DNA of 64,000 nucleotides from a virus (lineage: Duplodnaviria > Caudoviricetes): the IMG/VR virus record IMGVR_UViG_3300049712_000011, positions 4,365-68,364 of that record. One strand, 5' to 3'. This document shows, piece after piece, positions 25,119 to 62,204 of this stretch. The notes below the pieces were generated by a model. It did not search any database, was not told the origin of the DNA, and saw only the letters and a list, made by a program, of their open reading frames with translations. The translations under genes and the position numbers were made by a program. Numbering within the stretch: the stretch's first letter is position 1; the number at the start of each line of letters is the position of its first letter.

Positions 25119-25235
25119 GCGTCGTTAGCTCAACGGTAGAGCACCTGCTTTCTAAGTAGGAGGTTGTGCGCTATTCATTGGAGGGCCTTTGAAGCTTTCC
25201 TTTCTCGCGAGGTTCGAATCCCACACGGCGCACCA
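25119..25235 (+). tRNA. trnR: tRNA-Arg(TCT) with a 42-nt insertion in the T-stem
   Basis: Acceptor GCGTCGT/ACGGCGC, D and anticodon arms, TTCGAAT loop, CCA; T-stem GTG|GG split by 25169-25210. Confidence 0.85.
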
Positions 25236-58832: not shown

Positions 58833-58903
58833 GCGGTCCTCTGTGCGAGGTGACGAGACTCCAAATCTTGTCTTGGTCGGTTCGATTCCGACACCGCCTG
58901 CCA
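58831..58903 (+). tRNA. trnW: tRNA-Trp(CCA) with atypical short D-arm and 7-bp anticodon stem
   Basis: AGGCGGT/ACCGCCT, CTCCAAA loop, GTCGG-TTCGATT-CCGAC, G73, CCA. Confidence 0.8.
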
Positions 58904-58916
58904 ATTTTAAGAAATA

Positions 58917-59429
58917 ATGATTACAGTTAAAACAGTAAATAAACCAGGTAAAATTGATACAGCCTGGATCAGAACACAGCTGGCTAACCTGTATCCAGGT
59001 ACTGTTGCAGCTAAATGGAAACGAACATCAAAGAAAAATATTGCTGACGATGTGGTTCGTACCTTTATTCATCCTGGTAAGCCAACTATTGTAGTCACAG
59101 AGTTATTGGGTATCCTTTCCCCTGTGCAATTTTCAGAGCAACCAGATGGTGATAATCGTTTGATGGAAGAGCAGGTTATTGCTGCTGCTAAAACTATCAA
59201 ACATTGTGGTGATTACGGTCGACTACATGTTAATCACAACGATAAAGAAATTTGGTGGTGCGCAGGTGATGGTGACTGTAGTACAGAACAAGGTCACACA
59301 GGCTATGAGGAAATCAAGCTATTGCTAAAAGTTCCAGGGGTTAAAGTTGTTCATTTGGAAGCGGAATGCGAACCAGATGAAAACGATACTGAGTGGAAAT
59401 ATCTAGGCACATTTGGCATCACTGTATAG
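58917..59429 (+). CDS. hypothetical protein
   Basis: 170 aa ORF. Confidence 0.6.
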   Translation: MITVKTVNKPGKIDTAWIRTQLANLYPGTVAAKWKRTSKKNIADDVVRTFIHPGKPTIVVTELLGILSPVQFSEQPDGDNRLMEEQVIAAAKTIKHCGDYGRLHVNHNDKEIWWCAGDGDCSTEQGHTGYEEIKLLLKVPGVKVVHLEAECEPDENDTEWKYLGTFGITV

Positions 59430-59699
59430 CTAGTCCACTAGGCAGACGAGTATGTCTGTTGGATGACTAGCACTTGTCCTCTGTGTTCCCTTTCGATTTG
59501 AGCGACGTGAGCCGACGAAGGTCTTCGGATCTATACTGTGCAGTCTGTTTCTCTTACGATAGATAATATAGCGGAGGTTGCTTACCGACATGGCCTCTAG
59601 GGGATTCTGTTTGTAAGTTAGTACGCTTCAAACCGTACAACGAGGTGCGTCTCGTTAAACGACGGGGGACGGTAGGCATCATCCCGATACCACACCTAC
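59429..59699 (+). ncRNA. putative large structured ncRNA
   Basis: GCTAGTC/GACTAGC, GTCCTCTGT/ACGGGGGAC, GTTCCCT/AGGGATT, AACGAG/CTCGTT, GGTAGG/CCTACC. Confidence 0.5.
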
Positions 59700-59711
59700 C
59701 AGACTTTCCAT

Positions 59712-59770
59712 GGGCGCATAGCTCAAAGGTAGAGCCATATGAATTGAGGGTTCGAGTCCTTCTGCGTCCA
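59712..59770 (+). ncRNA. tRNA-Ala-like RNA lacking the anticodon arm
   Basis: GGGCGCA/TGCGTCC (G3:U70) and A73, full D- and T-arms, only 10 nt between them. Confidence 0.75.
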
Positions 59771-59778
59771 TACTATTT

Positions 59779-59982
59779 ATGCATCCTAGTCCTATTTACC
59801 CTGATACGTCTCCAGCTGCCAGGCGTAAGCGCAAGAATAAAGAACGTCATCGAGTGCAATTCCCTAAAAGAATTCATACTTGTAATAGATGTGGCGGGCA
59901 CGAGACGTGGTGTAGTTGTTGTGAAGTATTCTCTTGCCATGGAGATTGTAATGACGGATACGGTACTTGTATGTGCAGTTAA
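59779..59982 (+). CDS. small Cys-rich protein
   Basis: CNRC, CSCC, C..C..C. Confidence 0.55.
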   Translation: MHPSPIYPDTSPAARRKRKNKERHRVQFPKRIHTCNRCGGHETWCSCCEVFSCHGDCNDGYGTCMCS

Positions 59983-59986
59983 TTTA

Positions 59987-60120
59987 CTTGGGGCAGTGAC
60001 AGAAACGGTTACTTCTTATTGACAAAGACGGGGCTGGGTTCGAATCCCAGCGGCAACACAATATGTTGCTGTGGTGTAGCGGATAGCATCGAACACACTG
60101 TTTCAACTTTTCTCCCCAAG
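59987..60120 (+). ncRNA. circularly permuted tRNA-like RNA (YrlA/Y RNA-like topology)
   Basis: T-arm, then acceptor hairpin CGGCAAC/GTTGCTG, then D-arm; ends paired (CTTGGGG/CCCCAAG, GAAACGGT/ACTGTTTC). Confidence 0.7.
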
Positions 60121-60129
60121 GAGACTTTC

Positions 60130-60205
60130 GGGCTCGTAGCTCATTTGGTAGAGCGGCTGCCTTGCACGCAGTAGGTGGCAGGTTCGAATCCTGTCGGGTC
60201 CACCA
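60130..60205 (+). tRNA. trnA: tRNA-Ala(TGC)
   Basis: Canonical cloverleaf, G3:U70, CCA. Confidence 0.95.
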
Positions 60206-60329
60206 ATTAACACAGGTAGAAATACCTTCCGTAATGTCGGACGTCTGGGCCACGATAGTGTCCACCAATTTACCGCGTCTATATTGCTAGGCTTAGATCA
60301 GTAGGTGTTGCTGAAGCGGTTCCGTTTAT

Positions 60330-60407
60330 GGGGGTTTAGCTCAGTTAGGTAGAGCAACACCCTTTAATAAGGTGTACGGGTCGGTGGTTCAAATCCATCA
60401 GCCCCCA
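60330..60407 (+). tRNA. tRNA-Ile-like with a 9-nt anticodon loop (CTTTAATAA), no encoded CCA
   Basis: Ile-type body; ACACC/GGTGT stem; enlarged loop and variable region. Confidence 0.65.
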
Positions 60408-60414
60408 AACTTTA

Positions 60415-60491
60415 GGGGTCATAGCTCAGTTGGCTAGAGCGTCTGCATGGCATGCAGAAGGTCGTGGGTTCGAGTCCCACTGGCTCCACCA
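60415..60491 (+). tRNA. trnA: tRNA-Ala(GGC)
   Basis: Canonical cloverleaf, CCA. Confidence 0.95.
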
Positions 60492-60501
60492 GAATTCAAA
60501 A

Positions 60502-62105: not shown

Positions 62106-62113
62106 ATTTAAGT

Positions 62114-62204
62114 GGGGACTGTTCCATGTGGCTGACTGTAAATCAGTTGTCTATAAATATACATGGCGGCTGACGAAGAGGTTCAACTCCTCCAGGCCCC
62201 ACCA
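62114..62204 (+). tRNA. trnY: atypical tRNA-Tyr(GTA): reduced D-arm, long variable arm, 8/4-like acceptor/T stems
   Basis: GCTGA-CTGTAAA-TCAGT, GAGG-TTCAACT-CCTC, A73, CCA. Confidence 0.7.

Follow-up and report, generated by a model that had tools for sequence, protein, structure and literature searches.

A Phage tRNA-Like RNA Gene Without Anticodon Arm and Its Conserved Pairing With a Small Cysteine-Rich Protein Gene

The Locus and Its Genomic Setting

The stretch of DNA analyzed here, hereafter referred to as the window, comprises 64 kb of a 68-kb viral contig from IMG/VR with a CheckV completeness of 33%. Its genes for ribonucleotide reductase, an SbcC-like ATPase, a UDG-PolA fusion, RecA, a helicase and an RNA ligase make up a phage replication module, and the source is an uncultured jumbo phage. 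Toward its end the window contains a long tRNA gene cluster with small ORFs between the genes. Within it, 1.6 kb downstream of the RNA ligase gene and with two intact tRNA-Ala genes within 700 nt, lies the gene for a tRNA-like RNA lacking the anticodon arm (the arm-less RNA), which occurs once in the 68-kb contig and is followed by the gene for a 67-aa protein (Table 1).

Table 1. Coordinates of the arm-less RNA gene, its structural parts and the partner gene in the window
Feature	Position	Strand	Remarks
Arm-less tRNA-like RNA gene	59712..59770	+	59 nt through discriminator A73; Rfam tRNA 44.4 bits, class model R1 73 bits; homologues with compensatory changes
Acceptor stem, 5' strand GGGCGCA (G1, G2, G3)	59712..59718	+	7/7 pairs with 59763-59769; pairs 4-7 covary in the family
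D arm: stem GCTC/GAGC, loop AAAGGTA including G18 G19	59721..59735	+	Read from the sequence
10-nt linker CATATGAATT in place of nucleotide 26, anticodon arm and variable loop	59736..59745	+	Length 8-11 nt in the family
T arm: stem GAGGG/CCTTC, loop TTCGAGT	59746..59762	+	Read from the sequence; double-sided changes at 4/5 T-stem pairs
Acceptor 3' strand TGCGTCC (U70) and discriminator A73	59763..59770	+	Next bases TAC, so that CCA is not encoded
Partner gene, 67-aa protein	59779..59982	+	Starts 8 nt 3' of A73; homologues adjoin the RNA at many loci

A preliminary description of this locus had reported perfect acceptor, D and T arms, an anticodon arm and variable loop reduced to a few nucleotides, and no encoded CCA. 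Direct reading of the sequence agrees with this anatomy in every detail and adds the 67-aa partner ORF, of which the description made no mention. T8 and A9 (U8 and A9 in the RNA) follow directly 3' of the acceptor 5' strand, and the final linker base (T at 59745) stands for nucleotide 48 and is pairable with A15, the second base of the D loop. A four-arm cloverleaf with a 5-bp anticodon stem and a 7-nt loop bearing an Ala anticodon is absent from 59712-59770. In the predicted fold, the tRNA core and elbow are kept and the anticodon stem-loop alone is removed.

The arm-less RNA was matched by the Rfam tRNA model (RF00005) with 44.4 bits (E 3.4e-6; gathering score 29), in an alignment where two nucleotides stand for the 15 anticodon-arm positions of the model, and it was not called by ARAGORN in the window. 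A class model built here from arm-less RNAs (R1) scored the window copy at 73 bits (E 6e-18) and the canonical and insert-bearing tRNAs of the window at 23-40 bits. A match of the arm-less RNA to a tmRNA family was not listed by Rfam, where weaker overlapping clan matches are suppressed.

Between 55717 and 63803 (+ strand) the majority of the tRNA genes end 5-13 nt ahead of the ATG that opens a small ORF, a layout resembling the tRNA punctuation of polycistronic transcripts, and an SD-like motif was found in 18 of the 74 ORFs of the window. Since this tight packing of tRNA and ORF is general in the window, only the pairing of the arm-less RNA with one specific protein is special to it. Around the window copy neither a consensus promoter nor a terminator was found, and the folding of the 282 nt that precede the RNA is not better than that of shuffled sequences (z = -0.78).

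Several other RNA-like features were observed in the window. Directly after the RNA ligase gene, a 257-nt full-length match to RF00010 (58130-58386, + strand; 34.3 bits, gathering score 100, E 6e-8) with recognizable conserved core blocks is a candidate miniature phage RNase P RNA; an RNase P-like RNA was not found in the Rfam E-value scan of the related locus L031. At 25119-25232 (+ strand) the Rfam tRNA model matched with 47.9 bits over 114 nt, pointing to an insertion of approximately 43 nt, and no ARAGORN call was made. In the gene called as Ile(AAU) (60329-60408, + strand), the anticodon loop is 9 nt long (CTTTAATAA) and CCA is not encoded, unlike in its neighbors. A tRNA-like element with a long variable arm and a possible GTA (Tyr) anticodon (62113-62201, + strand) directly follows tRNA-Lys; it was not called by ARAGORN and was matched weakly by the tRNA-Sec model (26 bits). 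A tRNA-Tyr(GTA) is likewise found downstream of tRNA-Lys in the related loci L036 and L037, directly after it in the latter. Just past the partner ORF, at 59985-60120 (+ strand), a T arm is followed by an apparent tRNA 5' half with no tRNA called, which may be a permuted tRNA mimic.

The Partner Protein

The 67-aa protein consists of an Arg/Lys-rich N-terminal half and an eight-Cys C-terminal domain that reaches the last residue (CxxCGG..WCxxC..C..C..GTCxCS-stop), and is 56-64% identical to the proteins of loci L110 and L129. Clustering of its family gave 108 groups at 90% identity and, at 50%, 146 representatives, the members being 37-182 aa long with the domain at the C-terminus, except for one weak match of 982 aa. 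For the partner protein there was no Pfam match and only a weak match to phrog_15916, no sequence match in the PDB, no structural neighbor in Foldseek, nothing useful in the ESM Atlas and no tblastn match in 50,697 cultured phage records. The source annotations of the family members do not point to a function, and the longer homologues contain no informative domain. An AlphaFold model of moderate confidence (pLDDT 69.5) predicts a basic helix followed by a beta hairpin. A peptide substrate of the RiPP/PEARL type was also considered for the Cys-rich ORF and rejected, as no modifying enzyme recurs nearby.

In the protein tree, the window protein is grouped with those of L165 and L129 at 100/98 support, all of them linked to Ala-type RNAs. 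The tree is otherwise poorly resolved, with non-Ala classes nested among Ala-type lineages, and is too short to reveal the number of changes in acceptor class or gene order.

Relatives and Selection on the Fold

Two relatives found through their RNA ligase (L030 and L031; ligase approximately 55% identical) carry a homologous arm-less element at the corresponding position, directly upstream of a homologous ORF and with a linker of exactly 10 nt. The preliminary description had named an intact tRNA-Ala at this place in relatives as the sign of a recent deletion or assembly error; the ligase-found relatives show the arm-less form instead. In several relatives a sigma70-like promoter (TTGACA-type -35 and -10 box) lies approximately 32-38 nt upstream of the RNA 5' end, which puts the predicted start a few bases 5' of the RNA, so that the transcript would begin with the RNA. 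The order in L030 and L031 is promoter, odd tRNA-like RNA, arm-less RNA and ORF. These odd RNAs (15384-15454 in L031 and approximately 15285-15370 in L030; promoter TTGACT-N17-TATTCT) lie directly 5' of the arm-less RNA, and the one in L031 was called as Arg(UCU) by ARAGORN, yet scored only 28.3 bits with the Rfam tRNA model.

A search of IMG/VR for the pattern of a D arm with a T arm a short distance 3' of it yielded 27 loci, and the same kind of search in metagenome contigs at least 120 stretches. Parsing left at least 76 distinct sequences from viral and metagenome contigs in which six or more of the seven acceptor pairs are formed and the linker measures 7-11 nt. The pattern fixed the D stem and part of the T stem, so that both say little about covariation in the pattern-found set; the acceptor stem, which lay outside the pattern, carries most of the covariation, and the D stem covaries in two loci found through the protein without the pattern (L169 and L178). 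In 17 elements chosen by the downstream small ORF alone, 272 of 272 helix cells were paired and 7 pairs had changes on both sides. An alignment of 37 members was paired in 592 of 592 helix cells, with double-sided changes in 11 of the 16 pairs, and pairing was far lower in its shuffled and slid controls. D-loop base 2 and the last linker base are A:U in 14 of these members, U:G in 12, G:C in 8 and other combinations in 3, and thus covary; judged from this pattern, they are the 15:48 Levitt pair of true tRNAs. This covariation in turn implies that the linker consists of nucleotide 26, a bridge of 2-5 nt and the variable loop.

As dozens of assemblies made independently show this architecture, neither chance nor misassembly can account for it, and from its distribution among the sequenced relatives the arm-less RNA is neither a recent deletion nor an assembly error. 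All members of the module family come from uncultured material. In cultured phages, near and distant DNA searches with 58900-60500 matched the canonical tRNAs and not the arm-less element, and in IMG/VR relatives of the upstream ORF (58917-59429) were not found. Relatives found through RecA (L036-L041) have syntenic tRNA clusters; in them, neither R1 nor the Rfam tRNA model at its gathering score detected an arm-less element, and the partner ORF of the window was not matched by tblastx. The 186-kb contig behind locus L025 contains the module and lacks the RNA ligase. When 185,579 species genomes were scanned by DNA pattern, the module turned up on only one contig of 6.6 kb, which is binned as Planctomycetota and probably is a misbinned phage fragment that gives no clue to the host.

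Arm-less tRNA-like genes without a Cys-rich partner were observed as well (L003-L029 and L193-L227). They include genes on GC-rich phage contigs, some of them inside tRNA clusters, and a conserved form with the acceptor strands ACGTGCA/TGCACGT in many Levilactobacillus genomes. In Bacteroidota genomes, D-arm and T-arm matches are followed by a hairpin and look Y-RNA-like or permuted.

Linkage of RNA and Protein

In a search from the protein side, run independently of the RNA, 15 distinct IMG/VR loci were found. At 13 of these an arm-less RNA is located 4-13 nt from the protein gene, upstream of it in seven cases and downstream in six, the downstream copies being detected by covariance model just past the stop codon; the other two have no arm-less RNA within 3 kb. 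Many loci with the RNA first have the ORF 6-12 nt after it, and in 15 protein-then-RNA modules of the larger set the gap is 4-13 nt. Seen from the RNA side, the ORF is adjacent in at least 29 of the 76 elements (ORF upstream in 12 and downstream in 16, plus L124). Clustering of the ORFs within 4 kb of 28 module loci recovered the Cys-rich protein in 26 of the 28 and any other family in at most five, and four large phage contigs, two of them complete, carry exactly one arm-less copy each.

Adjacency on the same strand has thus been kept despite flipped gene order and changed neighborhood, which argues for a functional pair. The window module combines the features by which the family is recognized, namely the fit to R1, an eight-Cys ORF on the same strand within approximately 13 nt and a pairable 15:48. 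We consider it very probable that the arm-less RNA is a conserved functional RNA with a dedicated protein partner.

Acceptor Identity

In bacteria, the alanine identity set comprises A73, G2-C71, G3.U70, G4-C69 and G20, and charging is possible with minihelices as well (PMC9976931). The window RNA has G3:U70, G2:C71 and A73 and is without the minor determinants, with C4:G69 in place of G4:C69 and U20 in place of G20; the tRNA-Ala(UGC) of the phage itself has these two features too. Among RNAs picked by their downstream protein only, 14 of 17 carry G3:U70. The pair is present in 5 of 7 protein-first IMG/VR loci with the RNA upstream of the ORF and in 4 of 6 with the RNA downstream, as well as in 25 of 35 RNAs recovered by a structural finder blind to the acceptor sequence together with an adjacent ORF. 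The 37-member alignment was partly selected for GGG...TCC acceptors, which biases its G:U share, and was not used to assess alanine identity. The 25 G:U members represent 17 distinct acceptor stems; G1:C72, G2:C71 and G3:U70 are invariant in them, A73 is found in 23 of the 25, and pairs 4:69 to 7:66 each show three to five pair types. As G3:U70 is one transition away from G:C or A:U, its retention despite this much divergence points to selection.

The other ten of the 35 partner-linked RNAs have non-alanine acceptors, which AlaRS is expected to reject. Seven of them (L072, L133, L141, L111, L150, L048 and L177), all in protein-then-RNA order, combine C3:G70 with a mismatch or weak pair at 1x72, G2:C71, A73 and, in most, G4:C69, and by these bases the sister class looks like an initiator-tRNA acceptor. 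U1:A72 and G3:C70 characterize the remaining three, which include the ligase-found relatives of the window, L030 and L031. Consequently, alanine is not the common denominator of the whole family: as far as acceptor sequences tell, the alanine-type acceptor is the dominant and perhaps the ancestral state, not a universal one, and the function of the module must tolerate or exploit a changed acceptor identity. The alanine identity claimed in the preliminary description is accordingly upheld for the window RNA, where the discriminator and G3:U70 are present, and for the Ala-type members, where the first three pairs are fixed while pairs 4-7 covary, but it does not extend to the ten non-Ala relatives.

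CCA is encoded in 22 of the 35 family members and by 8 of the 9 ARAGORN-called tRNA genes of the window. The window copy does not encode it, and CCA addition would be needed before charging. With this step included, the Ala-type members, among them the window RNA, are reasonably likely to be alanylated, judged by their predicted acceptor ends.

Proposed Function and Alternatives

As the combined best explanation we tentatively suggest that a working non-decoding tRNA mimic and a small basic Cys-rich protein form a two-gene module in which the RNA would be charged with alanine and directed to translation like tmRNA with SmpB. The RNA would mature along the tRNA route, with RNase P and 3' processing releasing it; a CCA-adding enzyme of the host would then supply CCA in this phage, and the host AlaRS, which needs only the acceptor end, would charge it with alanine. 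In the most speculative step, the charged RNA and the protein would jointly target the translation apparatus in the manner of SmpB and the tRNA-like domain of tmRNA, the protein standing in for the missing anticodon arm and the complex either freeing stalled ribosomes without tagging or blocking trans-translation of the host. Such a ribosome-directed, tmRNA/SmpB-like role, drawn by analogy, is conceivable and rather doubtful, and it counts against the rescue variant that the RNA has no mRNA-like part, which would leave the termination of the rescued ribosome unexplained. The minimal ribosome-rescue acceptor put forward in the preliminary description would have a published precedent in tmRNAs that consist of the tRNA-like domain only (PMC11915505). 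In its most specific and unlikely form, the module would be an SmpB-independent ribonucleoprotein of jumbo phages, composed of an Ala-charged arm-less tRNA body and a zinc-type protein of 65 aa, with a basic helix and a Cys domain that take the place of the arm; it would enter ribosomes without a codon and free those stalled on cleaved mRNAs or sabotage host tmRNA, sister lineages having been retargeted to an initiator-like acceptor.

Alternatively, the RNA could be a cis-acting processing or stability element, i.e., a signal for RNase P or 3'-end formation or a block to exonucleases that shapes the mRNA ends of the small protein, the protein itself being unrelated to the RNA. This would fit the distance of 4-13 nt between RNA and ORF at either end of the latter, the short spacing of most tRNA 3' ends in the window before an ATG (5-13 nt) with few SD-like motifs, and the position of the RNA as first element of the transcript in several relatives with predicted promoters. 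CCA and A73 also aid bacterial RNase P, and the t-elements of plant mitochondria provide a published precedent (PMC1920247). Processing by RNase P or at the 3' end needs no G3:U70, however, yet this pair is invariant over 17 acceptor stems. Generic punctuation would be expected beside many kinds of genes, whereas the RNA is single-copy and has one shared neighbor family, and the full D arm and the 15:48 pair exceed what t-elements keep. We regard a cis-acting element as improbable.

About equally improbable is a decoy or sponge, formed by the RNA with or without the protein, for a host factor that reads the acceptor end or elbow, such as a defence toxin modifying tRNA 3' ends, AlaRS, EF-Tu, SmpB or the CCA-adding enzyme. 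The acceptor/T/D surface is exactly kept and the decoding part alone is lost; several acceptor classes (Ala-like, initiator-like and others) exist, as if different targets were mimicked; the RNA of phage DS6A inhibits tmRNA (PMC11915505); and an RNA ligase gene and other tRNA mimics share the island of the window RNA. Against this, no defence or counter-defence gene is conserved as a neighbor in the 28 loci compared, a single gene copy provides little for a stoichiometric sponge, and the role of the protein is left unexplained. The variant put forward in the preliminary description, a bait immune to anticodon nucleases, was rejected, as an RNA without anticodon loop is no mimic of their substrate.

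A role as non-ribosomal alanine donor to a transferase acting on cell walls, lipids or peptides is very improbable. The retained alanine identity speaks for it, as does the fact that such alanyl transferases read mainly the acceptor end. However, no gene for a Fem-, MprF- or L,F-transferase-like or other enzyme recurs beside the module, the partner of approximately 65 aa is too small for such an enzyme, and non-Ala acceptor classes exist. A decaying tRNA-Ala pseudogene or assembly artefact, suggested by the missing CCA, unlike in the canonical neighbors, and by the two intact tRNA-Ala genes nearby, can practically be dismissed in view of more than 70 distinct sequences of this architecture in independent assemblies, the perfect helix pairing with abundant compensatory change, and the conserved linker length and partner gene.

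Returning to the two-gene module, a true tRNA core joined to an unnamed protein family with 146 representatives and no Pfam entry suggests an RNA-protein device aimed at a step in which the acceptor end or elbow is read. If charged, the RNA would put to a natural test what functions an aminoacyl-tRNA is capable of when it does not decode, and it would offer a new handle on ribosome rescue, or on its inhibition, during infection. Standard tRNA finders miss arm-less genes, which leaves them currently unannotated.

Comparison With Known Systems

Full-text searches of the literature did not turn up arm-less tRNA genes described together with a protein partner. Natural tRNAs lacking the D arm or the T arm are known; to our knowledge, the genes for tRNAs that have lost only the anticodon arm and have a selected charging identity are so far only those of tmRNA derivatives. 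The stable RNAs C and D of phage T4 are non-decoding tRNA look-alikes in phage tRNA clusters. The Y RNA YrlA has a closed acceptor end and a stem that binds Ro60 (PMC4201824). Like RNAs C and D and YrlA, the window RNA is a small tRNA-derived RNA among phage tRNA genes. We know of none of these described with an open Ala-type acceptor and a dedicated Cys-rich protein.

The t-elements of plant mitochondria are tRNA-like folds abutting mRNA ends (PMC1920247), and the window RNA likewise abuts an ORF, its ATG being 8 nt away. Whereas t-elements are incomplete folds that carry no aminoacylation identity and adjoin many different genes, the window RNA is complete except for one arm, bears an identity and has one recurrent partner. 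With tRNA-Ala and the minihelix substrates of AlaRS the window RNA shares G1:C72, G2:C71, G3:U70 and A73, and an acceptor/T-arm helix is sufficient for charging by AlaRS in vitro (PMC9976931). As compared to minihelices, it is a natural gene in which D arm and core are kept, with C4:G69, U20 and no encoded CCA.

The module resembles canonical tmRNA-SmpB in that an anticodon-less Ala-type acceptor is accompanied by an adjacent gene for a dedicated small basic protein, smpB and ssrA often being adjacent. Unlike tmRNA, the window RNA has no mRNA-like domain, pseudoknots or tag frame, and its partner is an eight-Cys protein of approximately 65 aa, whereas SmpB is an OB-fold protein. Neither this contig nor any of four large relatives encodes SmpB (PF01668).

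The published objects closest to the window RNA are tmRNAs consisting of the tRNA-like domain only ("CDS-less"), which are known from mycobacteriophage DS6A, from jakobid and other mitochondria and, in forms of approximately 65 bp, from plastids of Mallomonadaceae (PMC11915505; PMC3590771), and the DS6A RNA is reported to inhibit the tmRNA of E. coli (PMC11915505). The sequence of the DS6A RNA has no D stem and a P2-like stub and scores only 15 bits with R1, whereas in the window RNA a canonical D stem of 4 bp is present together with the 15:48 pair, a P2 stub is absent, and the linked protein is unrelated to SmpB. Although an Ala-type acceptor and a T arm without anticodon arm are shared with tmRNA, two defining features of the latter, the D loop without D stem and the P2 helix, are lacking, and the window RNA is therefore not classed as a tmRNA. 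In outline, the window RNA nevertheless resembles the DS6A tmRNA: both are short, phage-encoded and without anticodon arm or message, with a G3:U70 acceptor stem and a T arm, and just as the CDS-less tmRNAs presumably act with the small basic protein SmpB, the window RNA adjoins the gene for a small basic protein.
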